64,000 nt of DNA from a virus. Positions within the stretch are counted from its first letter, which is position 1. Each line of letters begins with the position of its first letter. The notes beneath the pieces are model-generated. The model was not told where the DNA came from, did no database searches, and saw only the letters and a program-made list of their open reading frames with translations. Location: IMG/VR virus record IMGVR_UViG_3300044858_003017, one strand, 5' to 3'. The translations under genes were made by a program, and so were the position numbers. This document shows, one piece after another, positions 302-58,236 of this stretch.

Positions 302-847
302 TTACATGTTTGGGTTATTTGGTGTATCTATACCAGTAAAATCATATTTTGGTGCATTTGTAGATATATCATCTGGATTAAATCCTTCGTTTCTAGCACC
401 ATCTTTAAACCATTGCGGCAATTGTCCTATTTTTGATTTTATAAATGTTTTCCCATTATCAAACCAATCTGGAAAATTTGTATAGTACCCGCCAATTTTG
501 TTATATTCAAATTCGATTTGATTTTCATTTGTTATTTTAAGTGATTTTGATACGCCAGGAAATTGATTTGCCGTAAAATCTATACCATATCCGTTAATAA
601 TAGAAAAAATATGCGAATCACCATCTCCTGATTTCCCTGGATATTTTTTTATATCTATAGGAGGAGCTAATAATATTACATCTGGTTCGAATCCTTTATT
701 TGACTTAACCCATTTAACAAATTCATATGTTGATCTTTTACAATCATGTGATGTATTATATGATGTAGATTTCATAAATTCTTTAGCAAGATTATTTACA
801 TCTATGCTATTTTCAACTTCATTTAATAAATCTCGTAATCGTATCAT
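302..847 (-). CDS. Putative transglutaminase/papain-fold (Cys-His-Asp) enzyme with MIRLRDLLNE leader
   Basis: DCKRST ... SHIFSI ... IDFTANQF order fits a Cys-His-Asp triad. Confidence 0.5.
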   Translation of the reverse strand: MIRLRDLLNEVENSIDVNNLAKEFMKSTSYNTSHDCKRSTYEFVKWVKSNKGFEPDVILLAPPIDIKKYPGKSGDGDSHIFSIINGYGIDFTANQFPGVSKSLKITNENQIEFEYNKIGGYYTNFPDWFDNGKTFIKSKIGQLPQWFKDGARNEGFNPDDISTNAPKYDFTGIDTPNNPNM

Positions 848-10287: not shown

Positions 10288-10315
10288 ATAATAAGAAAAA
10301 AATTTAAGAATTCAA
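10288..10315 (-). promoter_or_regulatory. Sigma70-like promoter TTGAAT-N16-TATTAT, 6 nt before the polymerase ATG
   Basis: same architecture as the helicase promoter. Confidence 0.7.
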
Positions 10316-10930
10316 ACCGTTGATGTCTACTGGTACAACATAATCAGTATCTACATATAATTCTGCAGGATTTGAAAATTTCGATGATATATTAGGTATA
10401 ACATTACTAGCATTTTGTATTTGCTGTAAATTTTTTGATATAACTCCCAATGTTTTAACATTGCCATCATTAATGTCAGTTAATGTTCCAGAAACAAACC
10501 ATTTAACTGCGACAAACCGATATAAAATTGCTTCAAATCCATCTGTTACCAATTGATTATACAATGTTTGATTGATTTCTATTATCCATGTTTCATTGAT
10601 TTTTTGCACAAAATATCGATTGATATAACCTATTTTTAAGTCTGCAGGCGTTACAATTGGAATATGAGATGCAATTCGTATATTGGATAATATTTTTATA
10701 TCAGGACGAAGCTGTGAATACGCAAATGCATCTTCTTCAATTGGTTGAAATGGAATCAATGGTTTTGATAGCACGGAATTATACGTTGACTGCGTATATA
10801 CTTCTCCGGTTAAATATTTGTGATATGCTCCTTTATATTCTTGTTTAGAATCAGTTAGCATCCATTCGTTACCAAAGGTATACAAATATTCTTCAACTTC
10901 ATCTGGCTGATAATATACTTTAAGTCGCAT
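10304..10930 (-). CDS. Hypothetical protein, probably baseplate-associated
   Basis: last gene of the tail/baseplate operon, coupled to the upstream gene. Confidence 0.6.
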   Translation of the reverse strand: MRLKVYYQPDEVEEYLYTFGNEWMLTDSKQEYKGAYHKYLTGEVYTQSTYNSVLSKPLIPFQPIEEDAFAYSQLRPDIKILSNIRIASHIPIVTPADLKIGYINRYFVQKINETWIIEINQTLYNQLVTDGFEAILYRFVAVKWFVSGTLTDINDGNVKTLGVISKNLQQIQNASNVIPNISSKFSNPAELYVDTDYVVPVDINGLNS

Positions 10931-13089
10931 TACTTATCCAATTTAGGTCGCATGATGCATTTAATTTCCGTCGTCCATTGTCCGTCTTGAGCTACATTAT
11001 GCGTAATACTTATAATACTAAATACCGTATTGGCAGTATATTTTTTTGGCAATACATCAAATGTTAATACATCGCCATAACGAAATCCATTAACGCCTTC
11101 AATGGTAAATGAAACATCCCATGGGAATATAGGTGCAATTGCTGCTTGTGCTCGATCAAACTTTTTATATGGATATTGAAGATATTTTACCATAGCTTCT
11201 TTTAATTTAGCTTGTAACGTTCTATCGGTAATACTTTTTCCGTATTCTGCTTTTTGCGTTTCAAATTCTTGTAAACGTTTTGTATGAGTTTGTGCATACA
11301 ATGCTTCTGCTGCAGATAATTTTGCCGGATCATTAAATTGATACATTGCATTCATATATGGTGCAATATCATCTTCTGATACTTTATCAGGAGCTTGATT
11401 TAAAACATATGACAATGTCGCAGCACTATCTGGCAACTTTGCTGACATTTTAAAATCTTGTACGATACTACCATATGATTCTTCTTCATTTACTTTTACT
11501 TTAGCATGCATCGGAACATGATATGGTTTAACCACTGATAATGATTCTGGTTGTCCTAAGTATTTTTCATCATAAAACAATAATACCGAATCGAGCCTTG
11601 GATGCGATATTAGTTTCATTTTTATAGCTCCAGCAGTAGCATCTTCAATACTTGTACTAATTTCTTTTAATAAATCAGATATTGGATAACTTTTACTTGA
11701 GTTTTTTTCTAAGTTTTCAATAATTGTTTTAATCATTGACAAGTTTAAAAATATGCGAGGTGGAAATGCTCGATCGCTGCTTAAAAATCCAGGCCAATTG
11801 CCAAAATTAGTAGATTCAAAAAATACTTTTGTTCCATATGCTTCAGTAGACCGTTTGCGACCATTTGACGGTAATAATAAAACATCCCATGGGTTTACGG
11901 ATACTATATTTGCATAATATGAGCTATTACAAATTTCACTATCACAAACAATTTCTGGTACTGCAACTGTGTTTTTTAATTTAGATACAACGTAACGATT
12001 AATAAATTTAATTAAACGATTCAATGTTATATATCGCTGATAAGTTTTTTGGTCATTTTTTGATTCAACTCCAGTAGTTGCAAAAGCATTACCAAATAAA
12101 ATCCAATCATCTTGTTCTCCAGTAAGTACCGTAACATCGGAAGTTAATCTAGATTTGCCTTTAGCTAATGTTTCTGCTTCGCTAAACAATAAATCATAAA
12201 ATGATTTGATTCCTGAACCTGTTGGAATTAAAACAGAATTTGCATACTCATCTGGATTAGTAATTGGATTAACAGTTGCCGTGCCATCTGAATTTTCTTT
12301 TACCGTGTCTGGATCAGTTAATGCAGTCACATCTGCTAAAACATTGCTCGTTCCGCGCATCGTTAAAGTTACCGTTGCAGAATAATCAGAATTATATGAT
12401 AAATCAAATGATGTAATTAAACCTTCAAATGAAACTCGATTCATTTTGCTAATTTCTTGTAATTTTGCGGCAATGTCAATTTTAGTTCCATACAATGATT
12501 TTAATTTTTCTTCGGTAGGTAAAACATTTTCTGATAATGTAAGGCCTGTAATTACAGAATTAAGTGGATATTCAATATCAACTTTTACTTTGCGACCAGG
12601 TCGCATATATATCTCTTCAATTAAATCAATATCTCTACTAACATTTGGTACTTCTATAGTTACAGTAGCCGTATTTAATAATCCCATACTATGATCGCCT
12701 ACTGAAATATCTGCTGCTGATATATATGGTGGCCATCGATTATTATTACTAACTGCAGTCGTATCTCGTAATACTGGTGCAGGTACTTTACCAGTACCGC
12801 CTTCAAGAACCCAAGCTAATTCAGTTTTACTAATATTAAATGGCGATAAATAACCATATGGTCCAGTTGGCAAAAATTGATCATTTGTTGTATTTTCGCC
12901 AATAGAATGTTTTAAATCTGCTGCATATACATCTTTGCTATTAAATTCATATGCCGTTATTCGCACATTTGCAACTTTTGATAGCATATAATTTAAATCA
13001 GCCGTTGTTCGGCGGTGTCCGGCTAAGGCACGCGCGTTTAATTCTTGTTGCAAATTTGAATCTACCTGTGAATAAAATATTTCGCTCAT
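10930..13089 (-). CDS. Putative baseplate hub protein
   Basis: follows the LysM gene; FEGLITSFDLS and ISITHNV..GQWTTEI resemble hub OB-fold segments. Confidence 0.55.
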   Translation of the reverse strand: MSEIFYSQVDSNLQQELNARALAGHRRTTADLNYMLSKVANVRITAYEFNSKDVYAADLKHSIGENTTNDQFLPTGPYGYLSPFNISKTELAWVLEGGTGKVPAPVLRDTTAVSNNNRWPPYISAADISVGDHSMGLLNTATVTIEVPNVSRDIDLIEEIYMRPGRKVKVDIEYPLNSVITGLTLSENVLPTEEKLKSLYGTKIDIAAKLQEISKMNRVSFEGLITSFDLSYNSDYSATVTLTMRGTSNVLADVTALTDPDTVKENSDGTATVNPITNPDEYANSVLIPTGSGIKSFYDLLFSEAETLAKGKSRLTSDVTVLTGEQDDWILFGNAFATTGVESKNDQKTYQRYITLNRLIKFINRYVVSKLKNTVAVPEIVCDSEICNSSYYANIVSVNPWDVLLLPSNGRKRSTEAYGTKVFFESTNFGNWPGFLSSDRAFPPRIFLNLSMIKTIIENLEKNSSKSYPISDLLKEISTSIEDATAGAIKMKLISHPRLDSVLLFYDEKYLGQPESLSVVKPYHVPMHAKVKVNEEESYGSIVQDFKMSAKLPDSAATLSYVLNQAPDKVSEDDIAPYMNAMYQFNDPAKLSAAEALYAQTHTKRLQEFETQKAEYGKSITDRTLQAKLKEAMVKYLQYPYKKFDRAQAAIAPIFPWDVSFTIEGVNGFRYGDVLTFDVLPKKYTANTVFSIISITHNVAQDGQWTTEIKCIMRPKLDK

Positions 13090-13388
13090 CGTATATTATT
13101 TATTTGTATAGCTAATTCTTGAATGTTATCTGCAGATGGAATTCGCAATTTAGTATTTTCTGGAACCATTAATGAACCTTTACCTAAACCATTTACTGCA
13201 GCAATAAGCCACCACAGCTGCGGATCCGCATAAAAGTCATTAGCAATATTATCTAATCGATCTGATGTAGTTGTTTGAATGAATGTATCATTGTTATTAG
13301 TTTCGGGAACTGCATAAATCCATGTTTGTGCTCTACGTATGTTGCGCACATCTCGTATTTGTTTGGTTGATTGATATCTACTACTCAT
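13086..13388 (-). CDS. LysM / tail protein X-like baseplate protein
   Basis: DRLDNIANDFY.DPQLWWLIAAVN ... LRIP. Confidence 0.85.
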   Translation of the reverse strand: MSSRYQSTKQIRDVRNIRRAQTWIYAVPETNNNDTFIQTTTSDRLDNIANDFYADPQLWWLIAAVNGLGKGSLMVPENTKLRIPSADNIQELAIQINNIR

Positions 13389-15280
13389 TATAATTCCTGT
13401 TGTTGATTTGTTGCTCCTGGCGCTGCGTTACCTGTTCTTATGGGACCTTTTTTTCGGAAATCATTTAACCAACCACCCTTAGATGTTGAAGAAGCTGCAC
13501 CATTAATGTCAATATCATTTGTTGGCGCAAAGGTATAAAATGCGCCACCTTTTTGCGGCAAGTAATCAGTAATCATAGTCAATCCCATGCTAACATCAAT
13601 TTTATGTGTTACTTGCTTCATTTCCGGATCTTCTTCTATGTTAATTTCCCATGTTGTATCACTATCAACAAATGTATATGATAAACTTTCAATAACAGCT
13701 GGCTGCGAAATAAAATAATCTCCAATAGTTACTCGGATCCATGGCCCTTTTAATGCAAATGAATCTGTGGTATATTCGGGGGCAGTATATCCAGCAAGTC
13801 CATTTAATTTTCGATAAATATACTTTAATTCATCACGATCTGTTGCATATACTGTAAATCCAAGATCAACTGTACGAGAATAACCGCCGTAATGATAATT
13901 TGAATCTGCTCTACCTAATATATTTACTGGACTCCAACTTGGAGAAAATTGATCGCTTAAACTTGATAAAATTGCTCGAAATACAATTACATCATCTGGA
14001 CTATTTTGAGCGCCAGCATGTAATGATGGTCCTGTAAAAAAGAATTTTACAAAATCTTTAGTAGTTCCATACGGATTAACTCCTAAAATATCTGCAGTTT
14101 TGGCTGCAAAATTACCAAAATCTCCTGCAGTTTCTCCCGGTAACCATCTATAAATATCTTTCCATGTACGTTGTCCAAAATCAATTACTGTTACTCGGTC
14201 TCCACGAAACGGTGTAATTTTTTCAATAACATTTTTTGTTTGTGTAAGTACGCGACCAAGTTTTGCTTTACCAGTACCTAATGTTGTTAGTTTGGCTTGT
14301 GCTCGTAATTCTTTAAAGTCCCAAGTAGATGCAACATTTGAACGCATAGTAAAATCATTTCGCATTGCTGTAGGCGAATCGTGAGACCCCCATCCATAAG
14401 TTGCATCTAAATTAAATACATTATATGGTCCTATAGTAGCTGCAAGTGCTGCATATGCACCAGCAGTTGCTGTTTCAGATCGTGTTTGTGCAGAAAAACC
14501 ATCGATACGCCTGTCTAAAAGGGCTGCAGTTGTCTCACCAAACGATTTTCCTGTCAATGAAAATTTTCTAGTTCGAAAGTCAGGATATGGTACTGCAATG
14601 CCTTGTCCTCCGATTCCTATTTTATTATTTAATAAATTAAATGGAGCAGTGGCATATGTAGCATCAACAAGACCGGCTTGATTTAACAATGCATTGCTAA
14701 TTGGAGAAACTGCAGAAATTCCACTTACGCCAATTGCAGCATTTACGCCCGATCTAATTCCCGTACCAAATCCAATTTGTTTGTTTGTGTTTTGCGTTCC
14801 CGCCATTGTTTTTGAATTAACATTTGCATTTATTTCTGGAGCTTGTTGTGTACTATTTAATGGAATTAAATACCCATCGGTACCAGCAGGAGTGTATGCA
14901 TATGCTTCATATTCGGGTATTCGTGTAGGATCGGCAGAAAATTTTTGACCATATGTGCTAAATTGTGATACAATGTCGTCACTATATCCTGTTAATTTTC
15001 CTGCAGTATCATATACCGGGGCTGATTTTGATCTTCTAGTTGCATTTAACGTTGGATTTTTTCCAGTTATTAACGTTTCTTGCTCAGTGGCAATATCAAA
15101 ACTAGAATATCCATTTCCCCAAGAGTATGATGGCGTAAATTGTGCATTTGAAGTTAATGTTGGGTTTTTTCCGGCAATTAATGTTTCTTGTTCTGTAGCA
15201 ATATCAAAACTAGAAAAGCCGCCTCCCCATGCGTATGAAGGAGTAAATTGTGATTCATTACCAATGGTTGGATTAGGCAT
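13388..15280 (-). CDS. Tail tube-initiator-like baseplate protein
   Basis: FRA.LSSLSDQF.PSW...GR ... VIESLSY...TWEI; lies between TMP and the LysM gene. Confidence 0.6.
   Translation of the reverse strand: MPNPTIGNESQFTPSYAWGGGFSSFDIATEQETLIAGKNPTLTSNAQFTPSYSWGNGYSSFDIATEQETLITGKNPTLNATRRSKSAPVYDTAGKLTGYSDDIVSQFSTYGQKFSADPTRIPEYEAYAYTPAGTDGYLIPLNSTQQAPEINANVNSKTMAGTQNTNKQIGFGTGIRSGVNAAIGVSGISAVSPISNALLNQAGLVDATYATAPFNLLNNKIGIGGQGIAVPYPDFRTRKFSLTGKSFGETTAALLDRRIDGFSAQTRSETATAGAYAALAATIGPYNVFNLDATYGWGSHDSPTAMRNDFTMRSNVASTWDFKELRAQAKLTTLGTGKAKLGRVLTQTKNVIEKITPFRGDRVTVIDFGQRTWKDIYRWLPGETAGDFGNFAAKTADILGVNPYGTTKDFVKFFFTGPSLHAGAQNSPDDVIVFRAILSSLSDQFSPSWSPVNILGRADSNYHYGGYSRTVDLGFTVYATDRDELKYIYRKLNGLAGYTAPEYTTDSFALKGPWIRVTIGDYFISQPAVIESLSYTFVDSDTTWEINIEEDPEMKQVTHKIDVSMGLTMITDYLPQKGGAFYTFAPTNDIDINGAASSTSKGGWLNDFRKKGPIRTGNAAPGATNQQQEL
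15047..15274 (-). repeat. Two tandem 36-aa (108-nt) coding repeats
   Basis: NPT....x QFTPSYxWGxGxSSFDIATEQETLIxGK twice; NPT at residues 3, 39 and 75. Confidence 0.9.
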
Positions 15281-17255
15281 ATCGTCCTTTGTTCATTGAA
15301 TTACCAGAAAATGTTCTGTCGACATCAACTTTTATGTTAGCAGATTCTACTGCTTGTTTCATTTGAGCAGCCATATTAGATATTAAACGAGTCATAGTTT
15401 GTTCAAACCGAGAATCTCGTTTTTCCATCTGTGCAGCAAAACGATCAATGCCTCCAACATTGGTACCAGCTACGGTCATACCATCATTGACTTTAGTAAA
15501 TTTATCACGCGGATTAAATGTAACAAATCCATCATTTACCATAACTGCATCATTAGCACCGCCGCCGCCGGTTACGGTTACTGCACTTGAATTAACCGTC
15601 ATATTTTCAATTGGAGTGCCAGTAAATTTATCTGCAAATGATTTAATTGCATCAGCCGCAGCCGTAAATTTACCTCCGATGATTGGTATAGCTCCACCTA
15701 ACGTAGTTAATTCTGCAGCAACGCTGGTAACCGATTTATTAAGTATTGCAGCGGACCCAACTACGTTATCTACTTGATTTTGAAAATTAAAAAATGTATC
15801 TGCACCTGATTTTAATCCTTCTTTTGTTGCACCAATTGCAACTTTATAATCACTTAATGCAGTTTTAATACCGGCTATTGAATCAGTATACATTGATTTA
15901 AATGCACCTTTATCATATCCAGAAATGTTCATTTCTGCATCTTTAGTTGCAAATCTTGCAAGAATGCCTTTGGTTTCAATGTTACGAAGTGATTCGGCCA
16001 TTTTATCTTGTGTGGTACGAGTATCATCTGCTTCCATGATTTCTGCCATATCATCTCGACTAGCACCCAGATCTTGTAATTCTTTTTCTAAAGCTTCTCC
16101 AGTTAAATCGAATAATTTTTCAGCCCCCATCGATTTTAACAATTTGCGTTTTTGCACCATTTTTGCCATGGTACCTTCTTCAACGCCTAACGTTGTAGCC
16201 AATTGTTTACGTGCTAACATGTTATTTTCTAAAACATCACCTTGTGAATCCATGATTTGTTTCATGATGTCGGCTTGTTTATTCATGTCGCCTTGAATAG
16301 TAGCTTGTCTATATAAATTAGTTAAACTTTCACCTTGATTGTTGACTAAACGCTTTCCTGATAATAATTGATATTCTAATTCATTTCCTACACTTGATTC
16401 GATATTTAATAACTCATCGCCCGTTTTAGCCATTTGTTCCATGGATAAACCTAATGCTTTGGATTTCATTACTGCTAATCCTAAAGTTTTTGGCATTCTG
16501 CTATATTGCAATGAAGTTTCAGAACCAGCAGCTGCAATTTCTGCATCAATTGTACGTTGAACTCCTTTAAGTCCGGTTATTTGTTCGATAGCTTTAGCTT
16601 CATTTGCACGTAAAACTAATTGTTTTTCTAATTGTTCTGCAGTAACTTTACCAGTACTGGCAACGTCTCGGGATGCAATTCCGGCGTTCATATCCATGAT
16701 TGCTTCTGCAGCTTCTTCTGATACCCCAACAATATCCGTTAAATAACGTTGTTGTTTAATTAGTGATTGATTAAATTGGTTACCGCCTTTATCAGATACA
16801 ATAAATCCGTTAGTTAAATTTCCTAGTTGTTTAATATATTTTTCTGTTTCTTCGCGACCGAAATTCAAATCGATTGATAATGTATCAATTGCAAATCCCA
16901 TATCTTGGGCAGCATCTTCAGTAATTCCATAAGATTTAATTAATTCATTATTTCTCGCAAAAACTTTAGTAATTTGTTCTACATTATCTAAAAATCCTTT
17001 ATTTAAACCTTGTAACGTTCCAGTTAATTTATTAATACCGGTTGCTAAATTAGCAGAATCCGTTTGCATTGATAACATTGCTTGGGACTGCAGTTTAAAT
17101 ATATCAGTTATACTACCAACTTGAGATTCTAAATTTGAATATGCGCTAGATAAATCAGTTGTAAGTTGACCTGCAGCTTCGCTTATTTTTTTAGGCATAC
17201 CTAAACGAGGCTGTTGTTTAAGACGTTTAATTGTATGTAAGTAAGAGTTATGCAT
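15273..17255 (-). CDS. Tape measure protein
   Basis: long Ala/Gln-rich helical protein downstream of tube and chaperone genes; LLNIESSV..ELE.QLLSGK. Confidence 0.75.
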   Translation of the reverse strand: MHNSYLHTIKRLKQQPRLGMPKKISEAAGQLTTDLSSAYSNLESQVGSITDIFKLQSQAMLSMQTDSANLATGINKLTGTLQGLNKGFLDNVEQITKVFARNNELIKSYGITEDAAQDMGFAIDTLSIDLNFGREETEKYIKQLGNLTNGFIVSDKGGNQFNQSLIKQQRYLTDIVGVSEEAAEAIMDMNAGIASRDVASTGKVTAEQLEKQLVLRANEAKAIEQITGLKGVQRTIDAEIAAAGSETSLQYSRMPKTLGLAVMKSKALGLSMEQMAKTGDELLNIESSVGNELEYQLLSGKRLVNNQGESLTNLYRQATIQGDMNKQADIMKQIMDSQGDVLENNMLARKQLATTLGVEEGTMAKMVQKRKLLKSMGAEKLFDLTGEALEKELQDLGASRDDMAEIMEADDTRTTQDKMAESLRNIETKGILARFATKDAEMNISGYDKGAFKSMYTDSIAGIKTALSDYKVAIGATKEGLKSGADTFFNFQNQVDNVVGSAAILNKSVTSVAAELTTLGGAIPIIGGKFTAAADAIKSFADKFTGTPIENMTVNSSAVTVTGGGGANDAVMVNDGFVTFNPRDKFTKVNDGMTVAGTNVGGIDRFAAQMEKRDSRFEQTMTRLISNMAAQMKQAVESANIKVDVDRTFSGNSMNKGRYA

Positions 17256-17275
17256 ATATCAATAAATATCGTTAA

Positions 17276-17536
17276 TTACTTTTTTGAAGTCACAGGCCCG
17301 CGAGATACGTTACTTGTCGGTTTCGGATCTGGTTGCAATTTTTCATTGACTTTATTGATCCAAAATTTTCTTAAAAATATTGGCATTGTATAAACAGTAT
17401 TCCAATCCCATCGGCCTTCGCCTGCCCAAATTAAATCAAACAATATGTTATGTAATGCTTTTCGATCGGATGCATTAAAACCAAAAAAAGTTTGATCCAA
17501 TTTGAAATTTAGATTTGAAGGTGCCTCCCTGTTCAC
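17276..17536 (-). CDS. Tail chaperone C-terminal frame (gp51/GT-like), probably reached by frameshifting
   Basis: overlaps the upstream gene by 62 nt in the +1 frame; only a GTG start; WxWxxVYxMPIxLRxFW motif. Confidence 0.6.
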   Translation of the reverse strand: MNREAPSNLNFKLDQTFFGFNASDRKALHNILFDLIWAGEGRWDWNTVYTMPIFLRKFWINKVNEKLQPDPKPTSNVSRGPVTSKK

Positions 17537-18239
17537 CTTCGAATTCCAATTCTAAATTTACTCCCGGTGTATTTGCTTGAACGAATTCTCGAAAACGTTT
17601 TGCATCTCGTGCTAAAAATTCATAGCGAATAAAATTTTCAATATCCGTTGCTGATCGTGATGCATTAATTTGTTTGATTAAACCTTGTAATGCACTAGAA
17701 ATAGTTCGGTCATCGGTAATTTTTTTTGATTCTCGATTAGTTAAAAATGAAAATTTAAGTGTAAACTTATCATTTACTTGATAATCAAATTCTCCATTTT
17801 GATCGGCTTGTAATTCAAATGGCAAAAAGGTTAATTTAGTTAAATCAGCAGTCCGCTCATATGTTTTGCCAGTTTCTGGATCTGTTACTTGTACAGGATA
17901 TTCCGGACCATATGATAAAATACGAGCTTGAATAATTAATGCATCTTTATCTGCTTGTGCAATCGTGTCTGCATCAATTCCTGGCGTAATAATCAAACTT
18001 TCAATCAATTTATCTAAAACAATGCCTTCTCGTATATATGATAAATTAGTTAAAATATCTTCATCATATGCTGTCATGTATCGCATTTCAAGTTGTCCGT
18101 TTCGTAACGGGTGCGATTCGGGATAAATTTTACCTGCCGATGGCAATGAAATTATTTCTGTTGGAATTGTATTGCGCTTGGTTTGTTCGTATTGTTGCTT
18201 AGCAAGTGCAATGATGTCTTGATTTGTTACTGATTTCAT
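17475..18239 (-). CDS. Baseplate hub assembly / tail assembly chaperone (gp26-like)
   Basis: LPSAGKIYP, MRYMTAYDEDIL, ARILSYG, C-terminal FFWF; between tube and TMP. Confidence 0.75.
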   Translation of the reverse strand: MKSVTNQDIIALAKQQYEQTKRNTIPTEIISLPSAGKIYPESHPLRNGQLEMRYMTAYDEDILTNLSYIREGIVLDKLIESLIITPGIDADTIAQADKDALIIQARILSYGPEYPVQVTDPETGKTYERTADLTKLTFLPFELQADQNGEFDYQVNDKFTLKFSFLTNRESKKITDDRTISSALQGLIKQINASRSATDIENFIRYEFLARDAKRFREFVQANTPGVNLELEFEGEQGGTFKSKFQIGSNFFWF

Positions 18240-18316: not shown

Positions 18317-18847
18317 TTAGAAACTTAAGAATGCCCAATCGTAACGAAGAGTTAATTCAATAGTAACTACATCTTCCGTTGACCAATCCAATGATCCAAA
18401 GTTTGCATCAACAATATATGTTCCGTTTAAGATCCATTCTTCAATTACTTCACCTAATGGAGAAAGTTGTTTCAATCTTACTTCTTTTTTATAAAATGAA
18501 GAATACCCATCGCGGCCTGTTGCTGATTCATGATGTAAACGAATCCATTCCATTACTGCCTGTGCACCTGATGGAACAATTGCATCATAAAGTGATACCG
18601 AAATTGTATTCCAAACAGATTTACCTTTAACATAACGCTGTACGTTAATATGATCTAAAGTAATTTCTCCGTTTGCAATACTAGGTTTTGCTGATGCTTT
18701 AATTAAATATGCAGGAACATCGCCAATTGACATGATAAATTGATGTTGTTTTTTTGGTTCCCATGAAAATGCATTACTATAAAATCCTGCCGGGTTTTCT
18801 CCAGCATAATCCGTTAAGTTGCCATTTACTTGATCTTGTAGTGCCAT
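18317..18847 (-). CDS. Tail tube protein (gp19-like)
   Basis: EPKKQHQF, LYDAI...VMEW, WILNG, LTLRYD; directly after the sheath. Confidence 0.9.
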   Translation of the reverse strand: MALQDQVNGNLTDYAGENPAGFYSNAFSWEPKKQHQFIMSIGDVPAYLIKASAKPSIANGEITLDHINVQRYVKGKSVWNTISVSLYDAIVPSGAQAVMEWIRLHHESATGRDGYSSFYKKEVRLKQLSPLGEVIEEWILNGTYIVDANFGSLDWSTEDVVTIELTLRYDWAFLSF

Positions 18848-18930: not shown

Positions 18931-21429
18931 CTACTGCGTAAATGTCGCACCTGTTGATTGAATATTGAAATCTAAAACAATAAATTCTGCAGTTCTGGTT
19001 GGTTGCAAAAATAATTGTCCGTATAAAATATTTCTATCAATTAAATCTGGTGTATTATTTGAAGCATCCATTACTACACGGAAAACTGACAATCCTTGTT
19101 GTGCTCTTACTTGTTCTAAATAAGGATTAACAATTGCCAAGAATCTGTCTCGTGTCTGCGATGTATTTTGTTCAAATACCAAATAACGAGTTGATGATGC
19201 AATAAATTTCTTGATTGTAATCAATAATCGACGTACATTTACTCGGTCTAATGCACTTGGAAGAGACTGTAGTGTCTTTTGACCCCAAATCACTATACCT
19301 TCGTTAGGGAAGTTCGCAATAGGATTAACGCGAGCTTCATACAATGTATCTCGATCTGCTTGTGCTAAAGATTGATATGTATCAATTACAGAATTTAAAC
19401 TACCACGATTCAAACCAGCTGGTGCATACCATGGAGCTGCAACTGCATCATTGAATGCCAATGCGCCTGGAACAACAACTGAAGGTGGTACCCAAATTGG
19501 AACATTCTTGCTAGGATTAACAATTCGCACCCATGGCCAATATGTTGCAGTATAATTATCATCAATATTTTGTACTTGTGATGTTACGGTTGATATTGAA
19601 TCAGTTAATGCATTTGAATCCATTACATAGAATGTATCTTGACGAGTTGTAGCCAAATCTCTAGCTGCAGTTGTCACCGCAGAATGCAAACTATCAATAA
19701 CACCTGGGGTAAGCAACATATTAACATCATAATAATCTGTATTGCTTAACAATGTAAATGCTTTATTATAAGCTTTCGTACCCGTACTAGTTGAAGTTGA
19801 ACAATCAAATCCAAATGTATTTGTAGAAGCAATATTGATTCCAGAATATTTAGGTAAATTTGGACGAGTACCATCAAATCCGCCTTGGAATGGCATAATG
19901 AATTTTCTAGTAGTTAAAGCAACATTAGTTGTAAATGTAGACCCCGTCAATGCTGCTTGCAATGAACCACTATATGCAGCGGTTAATGAAGGAAATCCTG
20001 CTTGTCCATCTTGATTTACATCACCTAAATAAAAATCTGAATTGCTACCAGTATTTGAACCTGATGTTGGAATTGGAGCTAAATAATTAATATTGTTTTG
20101 TGCGGTAAAATCAAATCCTAAATAATTCTTTGAACTATATTCAGATGCAACAACTTGCGATGTTTTATATGTTGCTGCAGATAAATTCAATGTACCAGAT
20201 ACCATCGGTATTGGTGAATTAACAGCACGGAATCCAAATGGTACCAATGTTTTATCAATAGTTGAATTTGAAACTGCATCTGCTACTTCAACTCGAATAT
20301 ATTGTGAATTATTTGAATAATCGCCATTTACAAAAAGTTGTCCATTGTCATTTACTGTTTGATATCGATCTCCAATTATTCTTGCAATATATCTAGATGA
20401 ATTTGGATTCAAATTGACATTAGTAAATGTTTCTACAACATCAGGAACTTTGTCGGTATCTTGAGATGAATATGGAGAATTTGGAATACCTGGTGTAGGT
20501 GATAATGAATTTACTCTACGAATTTCTACTGTAAAGGCTCCATATCCTGCAGGATCGCCTGTTTCGGTTGATAATCTAACATCTCGGATACCAATCTTTG
20601 TTTCATAATTTACTGATGTGCCATGTGACAATGTATGAAACTTAAATAAATTTTTAGTAAGCGAACCAATTTTTTGCGATGTTACCCACGGCGTTGATGC
20701 TACATTGTAATCTTGTAAAAATTCATAATTTGAAATTTTTTCTAATGATATTGTAACATTGGCTAAATTTGCAAACAATGATGATGCAGCAAGATTTTCA
20801 TATTGCACGTATACTGGATAATCTGTTGATTTAGGAGATGTTCCAAATACTTTTGAAATATAATTGTTTGCTGTAGATACAATTGATGCTGATATTGGAG
20901 TTGTTTCACTTACTAAGAATGAACCACCAAATCCAATTGCACTTGCGTCATTACCAGTTGCGACTGCATATGAACCAGAAACTGTAATTGCAAATGACCC
21001 CGAAGTACTAGATGCTATTACTGAATCTTCGAATAGATTGGTTGCACCCGTTGTAGTTACTGCTTGAACTGGATGTAATATGTGTGTTACAACTTTTGTT
21101 GAACCTGATTGTGCAACAACTGCCAATCCACCATTAGTTAATTTATATCCATCTTCATACAATAAACGTGTTACGGTAATTACGTTACCATTACGTAAAT
21201 AATCTTGAACTACATATGGAACGTATGAATCATCCGTAAATGATCCAAATTGTGCCGTAAACTGTCCAAATGATGTGATTTGTGTAGGAACTAAAGCAGG
21301 CCCTTTTGTTGTTGGTCCTACAATTGCTGCTCCTATTTGCGCAATAGCTCCAGGTAAAAACGATTGATCAATTTCATTCGTAAATACACCAGGAGAAACT
21401 ATTCCAGCGCCTATTTGTCTTTCTGCCAT
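18931..21429 (-). CDS. Tail sheath protein (gp18-like)
   Basis: SPGVFTNEID, GPTTKGP, YWPW, PWYAPAG, WGQKTL, RVNVRRL, FEQN, AEFI. Confidence 0.95.
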   Translation of the reverse strand: MAERQIGAGIVSPGVFTNEIDQSFLPGAIAQIGAAIVGPTTKGPALVPTQITSFGQFTAQFGSFTDDSYVPYVVQDYLRNGNVITVTRLLYEDGYKLTNGGLAVVAQSGSTKVVTHILHPVQAVTTTGATNLFEDSVIASSTSGSFAITVSGSYAVATGNDASAIGFGGSFLVSETTPISASIVSTANNYISKVFGTSPKSTDYPVYVQYENLAASSLFANLANVTISLEKISNYEFLQDYNVASTPWVTSQKIGSLTKNLFKFHTLSHGTSVNYETKIGIRDVRLSTETGDPAGYGAFTVEIRRVNSLSPTPGIPNSPYSSQDTDKVPDVVETFTNVNLNPNSSRYIARIIGDRYQTVNDNGQLFVNGDYSNNSQYIRVEVADAVSNSTIDKTLVPFGFRAVNSPIPMVSGTLNLSAATYKTSQVVASEYSSKNYLGFDFTAQNNINYLAPIPTSGSNTGSNSDFYLGDVNQDGQAGFPSLTAAYSGSLQAALTGSTFTTNVALTTRKFIMPFQGGFDGTRPNLPKYSGINIASTNTFGFDCSTSTSTGTKAYNKAFTLLSNTDYYDVNMLLTPGVIDSLHSAVTTAARDLATTRQDTFYVMDSNALTDSISTVTSQVQNIDDNYTATYWPWVRIVNPSKNVPIWVPPSVVVPGALAFNDAVAAPWYAPAGLNRGSLNSVIDTYQSLAQADRDTLYEARVNPIANFPNEGIVIWGQKTLQSLPSALDRVNVRRLLITIKKFIASSTRYLVFEQNTSQTRDRFLAIVNPYLEQVRAQQGLSVFRVVMDASNNTPDLIDRNILYGQLFLQPTRTAEFIVLDFNIQSTGATFTQ

Positions 21430-25200: not shown

Positions 25201-27438
25201 TTATATTACGTACCATTCATTAGATGGTCTAAATTTCATTACCCAATATTCAGGAGTACCTGTGTTTTGATAATAAGCATGGCCTAAAATTCTAACATAT
25301 TGTCCGGCAGTTGTAGGTACATTTGTTGACATTGTATTTCCTGCACTTTCTCTAATATATATTGGTAATCCATGGTCGATAAGTTGAACCGAAGGTGTAT
25401 CAGTATACGTACCATCATTTACTGTAATCGATCCTTCTAATATTATTCTAGCTCCGCCGCCCGTCGAGGCACATATACCTAAAAGTTTAGAACAGTCTGC
25501 AGTTGCTTGGGTAACAGGATGCCATTTTCCGTCTGTTTCCAAATATACTAAATCAAATAGAGCCGCTGCCCCATCTAACTGTCCTGTTATTACTTCTCCT
25601 TCATAGTTAAATGTCGTTGCAGGTACATCTGAAAATGATTCTTGGGTGTTTGACCCAATAGATTTTCTTAGATACGTAGAAGCGTCTATTTTGTAGTTAT
25701 TAGTAATAGCATCCCAACTTAAAACATCAAATCCACTTTGATCAGCTAATAACCTACTACTCCAATCAATTGAATAATTAGTACCACTTGTATCATATGC
25801 TAGTCTATTTGCCCAGTCTATACTTTGAACTGATGTAGCGTCATATAATAACCTACTACCCCAAGCAATTGAATTAGCGGTACCTGTTGCATCAAATAAA
25901 GTCCTTCCACTCCAATTGACAGCAAATATACCCATATCATCAAATAACGTTCTACCATCAGCATCAAAGCTGCTAGTACCCATTACATCGTATATAGCTC
26001 TAGAAAAATTACCTATAGATATGGCATTAACATAATTTAATCCATCAAATGTTTGAGTTGTAAATGAACCAGTTACTCCCAATGAACCTGAAATTTGCGC
26101 ATCACCATTGTATGGGAATGCAGGTGTACTTGGAGCATATGAAGCACTTAAAGCATTAGTTGCATAAGAAGCAGTTCCAAGTAAGCTTCCCGTAAATGAA
26201 GTTGAATTTATTGATGTTAATCCCGTTAATGATGTTGCAGTGTCGCCTAAATCTATATTAGTCGATCCAATTGTGATGCTACTATTTGCTAACTGTGCAT
26301 TTAATATACCTGCAGTTGCTGATAAATTAGATGTTGTTAATCCGGTAATAGTTCCGCCTAATACGATTGTGCCTGCACCGGTAATCGGGCCGCCCGTTAA
26401 AGTAATTCCAGATACAGAACCTGACGTATCTACTGATGTTACTGTTCCTCCGCCGGCTGCTAAATTGGTTGAAGCGCCGCCGCCACCTGTTGATATATCT
26501 AAATAAAATCCTCGAGCAGTACCCCCTTGTTCAAAAAATCTAAGTCTATTTTGAAATACATCAACTGTTACACCACTACCTGTAAGAGATGTGTTAGTAG
26601 CAGCTTTTCCTAATAGAATTTCTCCACCCTCATCACCGACACCATAAAGTACGCTTAATGTTTGACCATTAAATGTTAAATTACCTTCGCCATTTAGTGT
26701 TCCGTTGCCATTAGCAGTTATTACTTGAGTATCTACGTCATTTGCAATAGCAGGTGCTATGTTTGCAGCTGTTGATGCAAATGATGAGCTTATTACATTT
26801 TGTATTGAAGATGTTGCAATTGGAATTGCTACGCCATTACTATTTCCAACCCAAGTAAAGCCTTGTTGTATGTTTGGAACTTCATTGTAATATGCTGGAC
26901 CGTTAATTACACCTGATCCGTTCGATGCATGAGACTTTTCAACATTGCCTAATTTTTGTATTAATACTCCAGATCCAGTTGGTCGAACATTTGTATATCC
27001 TCCACCTCCTGCAACATATATTGAATCGCCTGCTGCAAATGCAGATGTATTAACGTTGCCGATATATCCATTAATGAGACCAACACCTTCTGCGCCAGCT
27101 ATTAATGTTTCTCCTGCAATTACACCTGCCGGCATTCGAGTTGGATCTGCAGCATCTGCTGGCCAAACTCCTGCAAGATTTCCAGATGTACCTGATCCCG
27201 TAATATAGCATGGGGTTCCTTTTGCAATAGTTATGCCAGAAACGTTTTTTATTACTATTGCAGTATTTTCTACAGGAGCAAATGAAAGATTACCAGCTCC
27301 ATCTGTTATAATTACTTGACCTACAGTGCCATCTATATCAGGATAGTTTAGTCCGCTAGCGGTAAAATTAGAAGTTACATTTAATGAATTTAACGCAGCA
27401 TCAGAGCCAGACGTTATGACTTTTTTCCATGAGGGCAT
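25201..27438 (-). CDS. Fibre protein with two decoration (DUF2190-like) segments and WxxRxLxD repeats
   Basis: MPSWKKVITSGS start; KGTPCYI...GDSIYV...QKLG; about seven 17-18-aa repeats. Confidence 0.65.
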   Translation of the reverse strand: MPSWKKVITSGSDAALNSLNVTSNFTASGLNYPDIDGTVGQVIITDGAGNLSFAPVENTAIVIKNVSGITIAKGTPCYITGSGTSGNLAGVWPADAADPTRMPAGVIAGETLIAGAEGVGLINGYIGNVNTSAFAAGDSIYVAGGGGYTNVRPTGSGVLIQKLGNVEKSHASNGSGVINGPAYYNEVPNIQQGFTWVGNSNGVAIPIATSSIQNVISSSFASTAANIAPAIANDVDTQVITANGNGTLNGEGNLTFNGQTLSVLYGVGDEGGEILLGKAATNTSLTGSGVTVDVFQNRLRFFEQGGTARGFYLDISTGGGGASTNLAAGGGTVTSVDTSGSVSGITLTGGPITGAGTIVLGGTITGLTTSNLSATAGILNAQLANSSITIGSTNIDLGDTATSLTGLTSINSTSFTGSLLGTASYATNALSASYAPSTPAFPYNGDAQISGSLGVTGSFTTQTFDGLNYVNAISIGNFSRAIYDVMGTSSFDADGRTLFDDMGIFAVNWSGRTLFDATGTANSIAWGSRLLYDATSVQSIDWANRLAYDTSGTNYSIDWSSRLLADQSGFDVLSWDAITNNYKIDASTYLRKSIGSNTQESFSDVPATTFNYEGEVITGQLDGAAALFDLVYLETDGKWHPVTQATADCSKLLGICASTGGGARIILEGSITVNDGTYTDTPSVQLIDHGLPIYIRESAGNTMSTNVPTTAGQYVRILGHAYYQNTGTPEYWVMKFRPSNEWYVI

Positions 27439-27718: not shown

Positions 27719-28546
27719 TTATACGTAAATGAAAATGTCTCCGGTGTTTGTATCAACGTGTATCGTTCCTTGACCTGCACCAGATCCTCCATAGATTGGT
27801 GCTGCACTAGGAGCAACTGCACTAGTTTCTACCGCTCCAGCATATACTGCGGGAACAAAAGAATTACCTGTTGAATTAAATGATGAAGTAAACCCCCAAC
27901 GTGTTGTGCCACTATCATAACCATACAATTCGCCAATGTTTTGCGTACCTTGTTGTACTACAATACCACCATCGCCCGTTGTATTAGACCCCGATGCAAA
28001 CAATACAAAACGGTCGCCTACTAATAAATTTTGCGTGTTTTGAAATGATGCTGTACCTAATACAACTAAATTACCCGTTAATGTTAATCCAACAAATGTA
28101 GGAGAGTCTCCCGTTTCTAAACCTAAATCTATAGTTGATCCAGCAACGCCGTTATTTGTAAGAAGTGCTTGACCTTGTCCAGGACTTGATAATACAGATG
28201 ATGAAATTACCGTGCTACCCGCTAATATTTGTGCTTGTGTTACGGTACCACCTAACGCTGTTGCATTTCCAGCAATCGTTATGCTAGAATTGGTTAAACT
28301 TGCATTAGGAATTCCACCTAATGTAAACGTAATAGAATCAGCACCTGCATTACCTACAATGTTTAAACCTGCACCTGATGATGATGCAAATGTAAGCGTA
28401 TCTGCGGAGCTATCTGCTAATACGTCAATTCCATTAATTGACATCGTTGCGAACGATCGAACCGATGATGGTGTTAAATATCCAGCATCATTATTTAATT
28501 GTGATATGTTACTACCCGATACTACTACTTTTTTCCAAGTTGCCAT
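27719..28546 (-). CDS. Fibre protein
   Basis: MATWKKVVVSGS start paralogous to 25201..27438; ISQLNNDAGY; GGIVVQ. Confidence 0.65.
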   Translation of the reverse strand: MATWKKVVVSGSNISQLNNDAGYLTPSSVRSFATMSINGIDVLADSSADTLTFASSSGAGLNIVGNAGADSITFTLGGIPNASLTNSSITIAGNATALGGTVTQAQILAGSTVISSSVLSSPGQGQALLTNNGVAGSTIDLGLETGDSPTFVGLTLTGNLVVLGTASFQNTQNLLVGDRFVLFASGSNTTGDGGIVVQQGTQNIGELYGYDSGTTRWGFTSSFNSTGNSFVPAVYAGAVETSAVAPSAAPIYGGSGAGQGTIHVDTNTGDIFIYV

Positions 28547-54765: not shown

Positions 54766-55302
54766 TTACCAATCAACCATAACCATTTTATCGTTCCATA
54801 ACATAATATTATCTGATCGAAAATCTAGATCTAGATCAAATTCTTTTATATTTAATTTTTCAACATCCGATTGTAATGCAGTTAAAAAATTATCCATTAA
54901 TGGATCTATAGTATCCGTTTCTTGAATAAAATCAAAGATAGAAACTTCTCCGCCTTTTTCTCTAGCAAACGAATAAAAATCATCCATGAACATATCAATT
55001 ACTTTACGTAAACGATCCGGCAATTCAGATGCATTTGCCATTATATACATATTTTTTCCATCAACATAATATACCGGAATAAACGTTGTAAATTCAGTAT
55101 ATCGATTTACGATAATATTTGCAACTTTATATTCATCCTGTTCTTGCGTAATTTTAAAAGTTTTATCTTCGCCATCAATTTCATAAACACGACCATTATC
55201 ACCAGCACCAATTAATCGAAATTGTTTGTTTTGTATCTTATCTAAACAACGTTGAATATCAGATTGCGATAATTCTTTAAGTAAATTTTTTAAACGTATC
55301 AT
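54766..55302 (-). CDS. Minimal protein-kinase-like enzyme with MIRLKNLLKE leader
   Basis: IGAGDNGRVY, FKIT...E, DFRSDN, terminal MVDW. Confidence 0.75.
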   Translation of the reverse strand: MIRLKNLLKELSQSDIQRCLDKIQNKQFRLIGAGDNGRVYEIDGEDKTFKITQEQDEYKVANIIVNRYTEFTTFIPVYYVDGKNMYIMANASELPDRLRKVIDMFMDDFYSFAREKGGEVSIFDFIQETDTIDPLMDNFLTALQSDVEKLNIKEFDLDLDFRSDNIMLWNDKMVMVDW

Positions 55303-56990
55303 TTTGCAAATCCTGGATTAGAAAATAAAATATTTCGATCTAAATCTAAACGTATTAAAAAATTTAAATCTACATCATCTCGTTTTTTTATTGGTTGTGC
55401 TAATTTTCCAATAGCTAATAATTGACCATTAGCATTATACAATCCAATTGTAGTAATATAAGGTGTAAAATTGCTACCTGTTACGAAACTTTGATATGTA
55501 TAATTATCATCTTTAGTTAGTGTAACATTTGTAGACAAATTAAATTCTCCCGCGTCTATTCTAACTAATGCACTTAGTTCGTGAATTGTTTTGGTACTTT
55601 TATATGATGCAGTAAAGGACGCATTTAATAAATTTTGAAAACGATAATCGGGACTAGAAAATACAACTAAACCCTGAGCAGGCATCACGGTACCAACATT
55701 TCTAGTTTGTAACATAGTACCACCTTCCGATCTATCAGCTAAATAACCAATTTCTGTACTTGTCAATGCTTTATTAAAAATTCGTATTTCATCTAGTTTT
55801 CCAATGTAATTAGAATCATGCAACAAATTCTTTATATCGGTAGGATACCCTGCATTAAATATTTGGCTTCCTGAAATTGAAAATCCGCCTATCTTTAACG
55901 GATCATTATTATCAATTCGAATCGATGCAGATAACGGATTAGTTGTTGGTTGTAATAATGTACTAGATTGTGATGCTACTAATGTTCCGTTAGTATAAAG
56001 TTGAATAGCACTACCAGATTTTTGAAAAAGTATATGAGTCCAACTATTAGAAATAGATGCAGTAACACGTAAAGTTGGGTAGCCCAATTGTAAGTTAACA
56101 CCCGGAATGTCAGGATAAATAACGTCACGATTCCCACCAACTGTACATACAATACTTGGACTAGTTCCTACAGCAACAATCTCAAATGGCCATTGTTTTT
56201 GATGTATAGATGTTCGTTTACTAAGTAAAATTTGCGGTTTAAAAACATTGGTATCTGATGCACTAACAAAAAATGATATTGCATAATCATGATCTCGATC
56301 ATATAATCCATCTAATATACGATCAATTGACCCCGATCCGTTAAAATTTGCAGCATACCCAATACTTCGTTGTTGTCCCGTAGTAGTAGGTATTCCCGAA
56401 ACATATGTAACTCCTGACGTATTATACGGCGTACGTGATATATCAAAATATTCATTAAATCCTTCATAAAATACAGAACCTGATACGATTGCTGCCGTAT
56501 TAAAACTTGTATCATAAATATTTTCATATGAATCTGAAGCAAATGATCCAGATACTGAAGAAGTAAACGTAAATGATGTAGATTTTATTCGTTCGCCAAT
56601 TTTAACTTGTGGAATTGATAAAACTGAAGCTGATTGAAATAATGCTTTTTTTGTTTTTGTTATATTAGGCGGACCATATGTAATAAACGGTTCATTTTTA
56701 TATCGATAAAATAAATGATTGAGTGAATAATAAATAACTGTTTGCAAACTTCCGTCAATATTAGCAGCATCATTATATGTTAATTCAGTATCTAGTATTG
56801 GCAACGTGTCTGTATAAATTGCAGTTAATGGTAATGCACTAGAAGTAACACTTCCTGATGTAATAGTCCAATTTTTATATACTTGAAATGAATTCATAGC
56901 TATATCCGTAGGATCAACTTTTTTTAAAGTTGTCGGATATAATCCATCGTACGTAAAAAAATTATCTATGCCTATTCTTGTTTGTTCCAT
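55299..56990 (-). CDS. LamG/concanavalin-domain tail/baseplate protein
   Basis: WTHI...LYTNG, GKLDEIRIFNKALT; C-terminal YITTIGLYN...LLAIGKL. Confidence 0.75.
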   Translation of the reverse strand: MEQTRIGIDNFFTYDGLYPTTLKKVDPTDIAMNSFQVYKNWTITSGSVTSSALPLTAIYTDTLPILDTELTYNDAANIDGSLQTVIYYSLNHLFYRYKNEPFITYGPPNITKTKKALFQSASVLSIPQVKIGERIKSTSFTFTSSVSGSFASDSYENIYDTSFNTAAIVSGSVFYEGFNEYFDISRTPYNTSGVTYVSGIPTTTGQQRSIGYAANFNGSGSIDRILDGLYDRDHDYAISFFVSASDTNVFKPQILLSKRTSIHQKQWPFEIVAVGTSPSIVCTVGGNRDVIYPDIPGVNLQLGYPTLRVTASISNSWTHILFQKSGSAIQLYTNGTLVASQSSTLLQPTTNPLSASIRIDNNDPLKIGGFSISGSQIFNAGYPTDIKNLLHDSNYIGKLDEIRIFNKALTSTEIGYLADRSEGGTMLQTRNVGTVMPAQGLVVFSSPDYRFQNLLNASFTASYKSTKTIHELSALVRIDAGEFNLSTNVTLTKDDNYTYQSFVTGSNFTPYITTIGLYNANGQLLAIGKLAQPIKKRDDVDLNFLIRLDLDRNILFSNPGFAK

Positions 56991-57048: not shown

Positions 57049-58236
57049 TTAGAAATCTAATTTAACTCGTATAAGAGCTTCTCGCTGAAATGATTTTAAT
57101 AATGGTTTAGAAAGTTTTGCTACTGCTAACAATTCTTGATTATCATTATAAAGACCAATTGTAGTAATATATGTTTTAGGATCGCCAATAAATGTAGTTT
57201 GAGATAATTGTCCATTGGAACCACTAGTAAACGATGGATTATTTGAAAAATTATATTCACCGTTTTTAACTCTTACGAAATAATTTGTACTAGTTACATT
57301 TTCTGAATTTCGTGCTAAGAATCCATATGCATCTCCCGTGCTAGGATTAGTTAATACAGAACTGCCTGATATTGAATGAAACAATGCAAAATGATTATTT
57401 CCTTCTGAACTTGAACCTGTATTTGTTTGGAAATTCAATTGTTGATCTAACATCTTTCCATCTAATATCAATGTACCAAATGCTGGATATGCCAATCCGT
57501 AATATACTGGCGCTGATGGATTGTAAACACCATCGTTGATAGAACCTGATACAATATTGTAAACTTGTCCAGAATCTCCAACCGTTGGATTTGAAATTGA
57601 TGAATCATCGATTAATGTGATTACTCTAGACCCCGAAACATTTACACTACCCGTTGCATTAGTAGGTCTAGAACCAGAAATTGTACGTAATGGAATTTCA
57701 AAATTTCCAGCATCTAATCGTTCTCGTAAACGATTACGTTTAAAGTTAACAACATAGATATAATCAGTACTTCCAGAACCAGCTGTTGTAAATCTAGAAT
57801 CTGTAGGATTAAGTAATAATTGTCGGTATTGTGAATAAATTGCTTTTGATGGAGAATCTTCTAACTGTCCTTGAGAATCTGATCCACTACCTAAAGCATG
57901 ACCGAATGCTAAAGAAAATTGTGTTGCTGCGCCATCTGCGCTAGGAGTTTCTTGATAAACATCAACATAATATCTACGTTGTGCCGTAGTTTCTGCAGAT
58001 GATGTAAAAAACGTAGTCAAACTAGCAATATTATCACTCCATAATCCAGCTGTAACAGTTTCGGTTTGATTTCCAACGACATCATTTGCTGCATCAAATC
58101 TAGTAAATGTTCTACCTGTAATATTTTGTGCTGCTTGATTTAATTGTGCAAGTAATGCATTATTTCCCAAATTTGTAAATTCTTGATTTTGTCCTATTCT
58201 AGGTTGTTGTTTTAATCGTTTAATTAATTCTTTCAT
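57049..58236 (-). CDS. Tail/baseplate structural protein
   Basis: C-terminal YITTIGLYN...LLAVAKLSKP paralogous to 55299..56990. Confidence 0.7.
   Translation of the reverse strand: MKELIKRLKQQPRIGQNQEFTNLGNNALLAQLNQAAQNITGRTFTRFDAANDVVGNQTETVTAGLWSDNIASLTTFFTSSAETTAQRRYYVDVYQETPSADGAATQFSLAFGHALGSGSDSQGQLEDSPSKAIYSQYRQLLLNPTDSRFTTAGSGSTDYIYVVNFKRNRLRERLDAGNFEIPLRTISGSRPTNATGSVNVSGSRVITLIDDSSISNPTVGDSGQVYNIVSGSINDGVYNPSAPVYYGLAYPAFGTLILDGKMLDQQLNFQTNTGSSSEGNNHFALFHSISGSSVLTNPSTGDAYGFLARNSENVTSTNYFVRVKNGEYNFSNNPSFTSGSNGQLSQTTFIGDPKTYITTIGLYNDNQELLAVAKLSKPLLKSFQREALIRVKLDF

Follow-up and report, generated by a model that had tools for sequence, protein, structure and literature searches.

Two otherwise unrelated proteins encoded in IMGVR_UViG_3300044858_003017, a 64,000-nucleotide stretch of viral DNA from IMG/VR that we refer to as the window, begin with the same short peptide. 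One is the protein in the tape-measure position (15273..17255, minus strand; 660 residues, starting MHNSYLHTIKRLKQQPRLGM), where the motif IKRLKQQPRLG occupies residues 9–19 (17199..17231, minus strand). The other is a conserved, virion-type protein of 395 residues (57049..58236, minus strand; starting MKELIKRLKQQPRIGQ), which carries IKRLKQQPRIG at residues 5–15 (58192..58224, minus strand), both genes being delimited by open reading frame (ORF) and translation. We give a probability of about 0.5 to the reading that this leader is a docking peptide at the tape measure's head-proximal end, is not cleaved off, and has been copied by the 395-residue protein, which would carry it on a tether and bind the same partner.

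The two cores are identical at 10 of 11 residues and are written with different codons at 6 of the 11 positions, although the genes lie 41 kb apart and the proteins belong to no common family and differ in fold or composition. In all six frames of the window, the pattern [KR]LK..PR.G is matched only at these two genes. When the first 30 residues of 53 window proteins were compared pairwise, the next-best pair shared 7/11 residues, and in 60 shuffles of the N-termini the best score never exceeded 7/11. The match between the two leaders, which the first-pass annotation of this DNA had singled out, is therefore real and far beyond chance.

The leader runs through a very diverse tape-measure family. 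A HMMER scan of 1.84 billion representatives returned 815 relatives of the tape measure; among the best 150 of these, 138 full-length representatives, all with less than 50% mutual identity, were scored for the pattern L[KR]..x[RK]xG. The leader is present in 98 of the 138, with its leucine at a median position of residue 12, and many tape measures without the full motif have degenerate versions of it. The logo reads [LI]-I-x-[RK]-L-K-Q-Q-P-R-[HLQI]-G, and substitutions are conservative (K/R, P/A/S and R/K), across tape measures that are only 25–35% identical to that of the window. The glycine that ends the motif is near-invariant (92–98%). A minority of tape measures start with MGLIDDL or MPGxISxL, sequences that align to residue 20 of the window protein onward (for example in G002, one of two complete related genomes, G002 and G003, used throughout). 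Because some tape measures start at the position of the window's Met20, the leader is a separable module of the protein.

That the window's tape measure itself starts at Met1, and not at Met20 (the start that, according to the first-pass annotation, would refute its observation), is settled by codon usage. The invariant leucine of the tape-measure leader is encoded by five different codons, the arginine by six and the glycine by three, and in 43 of 49 distinct leaders the motif begins 9–13 codons after the first start codon, which in 12 of the 49 is not ATG (GTG in 10, TTG in 2). Since codons turn over while the residues stay, the leader must be translated and a start at Met20 is excluded; judged by these patterns, selection on the leader is acting at the protein level. 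A ATATTTAT motif, read from the sequence, sits 6 nucleotides upstream of the Met1 ATG (17262..17269, minus strand). It is also found upstream of the tape-measure starts in G002 and in a further genome, G016, whose tape measure has a GTG start 16 nucleotides after the motif and an intact leader.

The 395-residue protein belongs to a family of more than 7,800 relatives, most of them about 335 residues long and beginning at the start of the body. The leader is found in 124 of 164 long-form relatives, with its leucine at residue 10 and the logo [LF]-I-x-[RK]-L-K-Q-Q-P-R-[HLQI]-G, often followed by GVPR. About 75 diverged orthologues in IMG/VR have the same layout: behind the motif come a variable stretch, a conserved helix (NEQVQQLAQQLANQ) and a body of high conservation. 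From the motif glycine to the helix, the spacer is hypervariable, 13–47 residues long and rich in alanine, threonine, proline and asparagine; that of the window lies at the short end of this range, linker and helix together covering residues 16–40 (58117..58191, minus strand). Homologues in the Flavobacterium phage immuto and the Microcystis phage Mel-JY01 have no N-terminal extension at all, and other lineages carry extensions of their own, namely MAQITGQAG... in ~280-kb phages, MPTLSEILNELNQQTSVGG... and the type seen in Rhodothermus phage RM378. When the bodies were placed in a quick maximum-likelihood tree, the proteins with the leader grouped as one clade (Shimodaira–Hasegawa-like approximate likelihood-ratio test, SH-aLRT, 99), including one member in which the leader has been lost, and the MAQITGQ-type homologues grouped as a separate clade. 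As far as these alignments tell, the leader is an add-on in both families. The motif is conserved in orthologues of both proteins, contrary to the second refuting outcome that the first-pass annotation had named.

How restricted the leader is can be seen from an exact-pattern scan of IMG/VR for I-x-x-L-K-Q-Q-P-R-x-G, from which 80 listed matches were classified: at least 46 belong to the 395-residue family and at least 29 are tape measures, four are cut by contig ends and one is a spurious 38-residue ORF. Among the matches listed, the leader on this evidence is a feature of two families and not a general address tag, and the reading of it as a general tail-assembly address placed on several proteins falls away. 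In the complete genome G003 the motif is found on exactly the tape-measure and 395-residue genes, while G002 has it on the 395-residue orthologue only, its tape measure being leaderless. There is no third carrier in the window, G002 or G003, and a looser DNA pattern applied to five further genomes gave only control-level noise. The proteins in the tape-measure position of immuto (1006 residues), Mel-JY01 (1348 residues) and the 289-kb phage G007 (805 residues) lack the motif, so the two copies occur together only in the ~150–170-kb phage group. In the tape-measure family the motif extends over the full diversity, in the 395-residue family over a single clade, and for this reason it was likely the 395-residue protein that copied the tape-measure leader.

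The 395-residue homologue of G007 has a different N-terminal extension, and a search of that genome for a leader shared in the same way returned a sole, weak match, 9/15 residues to an 83-residue ORF (E = 2.2). This ORF is rich in cysteine (G007:C1:216395, plus strand) and starts MAQILGQGGNQLPQE, which resembles the MAQITGQAGVNLTSE start of the G007 homologue; the resemblance may be due to chance.

The genome of the window is T4-like and AT-rich (33.5% GC), with all genes on the minus strand, and its complete relatives are ~160 kb long with terminal repeats. The carriers belong to a large group of uncultured freshwater T4-like phages, abundant enough in freshwater metagenomes to be represented by thousands of related sequences. 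PHROG and Pfam searches place the sheath at 18931..21429 and the tube at 18317..18847 (both minus strand), followed by a gp26-like gene (hub or chaperone; 17475..18239, minus strand; PF12322 2.4e-08, phrog_150 3.6e-12) that stands immediately upstream of the tape measure, the 660-residue protein, a 630-residue protein, a gp25-like wedge and larger proteins of baseplate size. Pfam, PHROG and PDB sequence searches gave no match for the 660-residue protein itself, and we identify it as the tape measure because of its gene position and size: it lies in the hub/tube block, and most of its relatives have 540–690 residues. The profile of its family does match the much longer ORFs in the tape-measure position of immuto and Mel-JY01. 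The window's tape measure is only 25–31% identical to its counterparts in G002 and G003, as compared with 60–95% for most other genes. More broadly, the tape-measure/hub/baseplate block (10304..17255) is 25–55% identical to the same two genomes, against 85–96% for replication and head genes, and to judge from these identities the block may be exchanged as a module or fast-evolving. The 395-residue protein is 68–70% identical to its G002 and G003 orthologues. Since this is typical for the genome, we rejected the idea that it is unusually conserved; it is the tape-measure/baseplate block that is divergent.

For the 395-residue protein, an AlphaFold2 model from a shallow alignment reached a predicted local distance difference test (pLDDT) score of 42, while a diverse 80-row alignment gave a model with pLDDT 86, in which residues 2–9 (the motif) form a helix, residues 14–19 are disordered, residues 22–40 form a second helix and residues 41–395 a beta-rich body in which the first strand pairs with the last; residues 14–19 and 37–40 have pLDDT below 50. 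With this model, Foldseek found no match in the PDB below E = 0.05, the top match of VIA-align, run against 48,161 chains, had a Z of 4.8 and extended over only ~70 residues of small phage tail/neck beta-sandwich domains, and BFVD returned only uncharacterised relatives. The ESM Atlas placed the protein in no named cluster, PHROGs held nothing useful for any of the 80 alignment members, Pfam offered no name and a PDB profile search gave nothing useful either. As there is no solved fold or family match, we do not place the protein in the virion, and the "baseplate" label given to it by the first-pass annotation was an assumption that we leave aside as unproven.

The 395-residue gene is flanked by genes for a 1208-residue LamG protein, a conserved 214-residue protein and a 563-residue LamG protein, with replication genes beyond. 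Its C-terminal ~100 residues recur at the position of the 563-residue LamG protein (55299..56990, minus strand). In genomes G014–G016 a 537–555-residue ORF just downstream matches the C-terminal profile of the family over its own last ~100 residues (E 1e-17 to 4e-19), and cultured relatives have a full paralogue of the 395-residue protein in the 563-residue LamG position. The short-form relatives without leader sit in the same fibre-like gene neighbourhood. On the strength of this setting, a role in a fibre or at the baseplate periphery is plausible. Our literature search for virion proteomes of Mel-JY01 and RM378 found none.

Some other features of these genomes are recorded here for completeness. 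The window proteins at 302..847 and 54766..55302 (minus strand) have 7 of 11 N-terminal residues in common. The 113- and 275-residue ORFs that follow the neck genes resemble fibre proteins, and fibre-like proteins at 27719..28546 and 25201..27438 (minus strand), as well as in G002 and G003, have the common start MATWKK/MPSWKK..SGSN.SQLNNDAGY, again at 7/11; this is an N-terminal module that fibre proteins encoded behind the neck genes have in common. A small ORF (...YMNNVQLYAMSKKVLKKPSKRGKHQVVLHNDTHN...) at about 14244 in G003:C1 and about 104786 in G002:C1, both on the minus strand, resembles by eye the Clp adaptor ClpS.

How might one peptide serve both proteins? The leader reads as a short amphipathic helix that ends in a Pro-Arg-x-Gly turn and is set some ten residues in from the N-terminus: the phi-phi-x-x-L pattern puts three hydrophobic residues on one face of the helix, with K-Q-Q next and P-R-x-G as the cap. 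Short linear docking motifs are built in this way. We propose that the peptide marks the N-terminal, head-proximal end of the tape measure, that the 395-residue family acquired its copy later, on a flexible tether at the N-terminus, and that both proteins would engage the same site on a single conserved partner while the tail or virion is assembled. The likeliest partner would be a component of the proximal end of the tube (the tube terminator or neck) or a tape-measure chaperone, and the peptide would stay on the mature proteins. The binding to a partner, the identity of that partner and the non-cleavage of the leader are the parts of this docking proposal that we infer. The orientation would be that of T4 gp29, in which the N-terminus is found at the tube's top, beside the DNA end and the terminator gp3, and the C-terminus binds gp27 (PMC12929629). 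That a hypervariable, disordered spacer follows the glycine suggests a tether rather than a cleavage product. The free divergence of the tape-measure block makes a near-invariant leader the more striking and suggests a partner encoded outside this block. Further, since G002 keeps the leader on its 395-residue protein without a copy on the tape measure, the partner presumably persists there and needs no tape-measure copy.

The same genome can be turned against the docking proposal, as a leader meant to copy the tape measure has been kept on the 395-residue protein after its loss from the tape measure itself. Nor do the variable residues of the two leaders co-vary within genomes: in seven pairs, the residue before the final glycine was matched in type (hydrophobic or polar) in four and broke the pattern in three, and we therefore dropped co-variation as an argument. 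A position of the 395-residue protein on the outer side of the baseplate would put any site in the tube lumen beyond its reach, and a shared partner would then have to act during assembly. Finally, no partner was found, and all leader-bearing relatives are metagenomic. These points weigh against docking.

Among the gene products at hand, the gp26-like protein encoded next to the tape measure is a candidate partner. A gp3-like tube terminator was not identified in the window. The gp26-like gene ends with ...NFFWF and a stop codon inside a T6–7 run (region 17276..17536, minus strand), and an ORF in the +1 frame (17276..17491, minus strand; TFFGF...WAGEGRWDW...Y.MP.FLR.FW) starts in the T7 run at 17483..17489. 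The domain encoded in this frame, TFFGF..LH..LF.LIWAGEGRWDW.T.Y.MP.FLR.FW, is kept together with the T6–7 run in all relatives examined (48 distinct sequences), and it is probably fused to the gp26-like protein by programmed +1 frameshifting or transcriptional slippage. The predicted fusion would be analogous to the G/GT tail chaperone pair of lambda. A complex was predicted for residues 1–45 of the tape measure together with the gp26-like protein, the extension in its +1 frame and the 395-residue protein's body; the score was 0.00, which speaks neither for nor against binding.

Several other explanations of the shared peptide have to be considered. In a variant of docking, the 395-residue protein would be a tethered mimic of the tape-measure N-terminus, sitting on the tape measure's own receptor and carried and released with the tape measure; the receptor would be either the sites left free by a trimeric tape measure in the six-fold proximal ring or a loading machine. 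We regard this as unlikely. A related idea, to which we likewise give little weight, is that the leader is a tube-lumen loading signal, sending both proteins into the lumen, so that ejection into the host would take the 395-residue protein along with the tape measure. By analogy, phages would here have an equivalent of the N-terminal sequences by which cargo is loaded in extracellular contractile injection systems (eCIS); the loading sequences of eCIS cargo are N-terminal, disordered and specific to each system, and the cargo travels in the lumen of the tube (10.64898/2026.05.27.728243; PMC11495950). The likeness lies in the architecture only: in AlgoCIS (Cgo1/Cgo2) and PVC (Pdp1/Pnf) a short, system-specific N-terminal leader with a disordered stretch is placed on proteins of a contractile tail-like machine, with some link to tube and tape measure (10.64898/2026.05.27.728243; PMC11495950), and the leader described here is also N-terminal, lineage-specific and followed by a disordered stretch. 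The differences are that here the leader is present on the tape measure itself and on one conserved, structural-looking family, and that it is a sharp 12-residue motif in place of a disordered region of ~50 residues. Loading of cargo fits poorly with a single non-tape-measure carrier family, conserved and beta-rich and not a set of swappable effectors (among the 80 matches listed). It also fits poorly with the leaderless short forms keeping the same fibre-like gene neighbourhood, and with the recurrence of the C-terminal domain in the adjacent LamG fibre-like protein. No loading ATPase resembling Pvc15 or Alg15 was found beside the tail genes; ORFs matching PF00004 (AAA family), which may or may not be of this type, number three in each of three related genomes and are all far from the tail genes.

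Cleavage of a propeptide by one protease, after the conserved glycine and in both proteins, was put forward by the first-pass annotation, and it could draw on the near-invariant glycine preceded by Pro-Arg-x as a possible site, as well as on the precedent of shared cleaved leaders in phages (the T4 capsid-targeting sequence, CTS, and the Prp leader of 80alpha). We hold this to be improbable. No residue after the glycine is conserved in both families, the hypervariable linker of 13–47 residues in the 395-residue family would make an odd mature start, the motif contains no [LI]xE head-protease signal, and family searches around both loci showed no dedicated protease beside either gene. Nothing that we found favours cleavage. 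A basic peptide (net charge about +4) could also hold the DNA end or an acidic tube wall through charge, with no specific protein partner. In its favour, the T4 tape-measure N-terminus is modelled at the junction of DNA and tape measure (PMC12929629) and is basic as well, though without the motif. However, charge alone would not keep leucine, proline and glycine near-invariant, nor the hydrophobic pair at –4/–3, and it gives no reason for the 395-residue protein to carry the peptide, which makes this explanation very unlikely. The least probable by far, and largely refuted, is that the peptide has no function at the protein level, being either a patch left by recent gene conversion or an element of RNA or translation initiation that two late genes have in common. 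Between the core DNAs of the window ~24 of the 33 bases agree, a level to be expected when a genome is AT-rich, but the residues are kept through extensive synonymous change and in tape measures as distant from the window's as those scored above.

In its defining features the motif departs from the T4 CTS, the Prp/L27-like leader and the double-glycine leader. The T4 CTS is an N-terminal prohead-core signal ending in [LI]-x-E, and it resembles our case in that about ten N-terminal residues are common to otherwise unrelated virion proteins of a T4-like phage (IPI–III and Alt). However, the CTS directs its carriers to the prohead core and is processed after [LI]xE by the head protease, whereas the motif described here ends in P-R-x-G, with no glutamate conserved at or after it in either family, and its tape-measure carrier lies in the tube/hub/baseplate block and is not internal to the head. 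In this respect the first-pass annotation was right to set the leader apart from the head signal. Its analogy to Prp processing, on the other hand, fails on both the sequence and the kind of carrier. The Prp/L27-like leader of Staphylococcus phage 80alpha, which takes after the N-terminal extension of ribosomal protein L27, is also one leader on two different structural proteins, but those (capsid and scaffold) are head proteins processed by a host Firmicutes protease, while here cleavage is not indicated and the carriers are neither capsid nor scaffold, whose genes are placed elsewhere; the two leaders presumably bear no likeness in sequence, as inspection suggests. Double-glycine leaders of the bacteriocin type have a Gly-Gly site with hydrophobic residues at –4, –7 and –12. 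Here a second glycine is present in 35% of the 395-residue family and rare in tape measures, and position –4 is proline or arginine.

Closer to the tail, T4 gp29 shares with the window's tape measure the gene position, presumably the orientation and a basic N-terminus, but this N-terminus (MKKPQEMQTMRRKV...) lacks the motif, and we know of no second T4 protein that copies it. T4 gp48's N-terminal anchor loop (residues 7–32), which inserts between gp53 and the sheath (10.64898/2026.03.06.709160), is likewise an N-terminal peptide of a tail protein docking into another tail component, though it is not a shared motif and has no sequence likeness to the leader. In the literature and family libraries that we searched, no tail leader of this kind is described, in agreement with the first-pass annotation.

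Even in T4, it is still unclear how the free, head-proximal end of the tape measure is recognised, although such recognition could stop tube growth, recruit the terminator or hold the DNA end. A near-invariant peptide of 12 residues on an otherwise freely diverging tape measure, copied via a tether onto a second protein, provides a concrete handle on this problem, and it is short enough to be synthesised, mutated or used as bait. If the peptide is indeed a docking code, it might serve to attach cargo to phage tails. Should the 395-residue protein instead prove to be a tethered mimic that travels with the tape measure, the inside of a true phage tail would have a loading or docking code, the first to be described, and one that could serve for attaching foreign proteins to phage tails.

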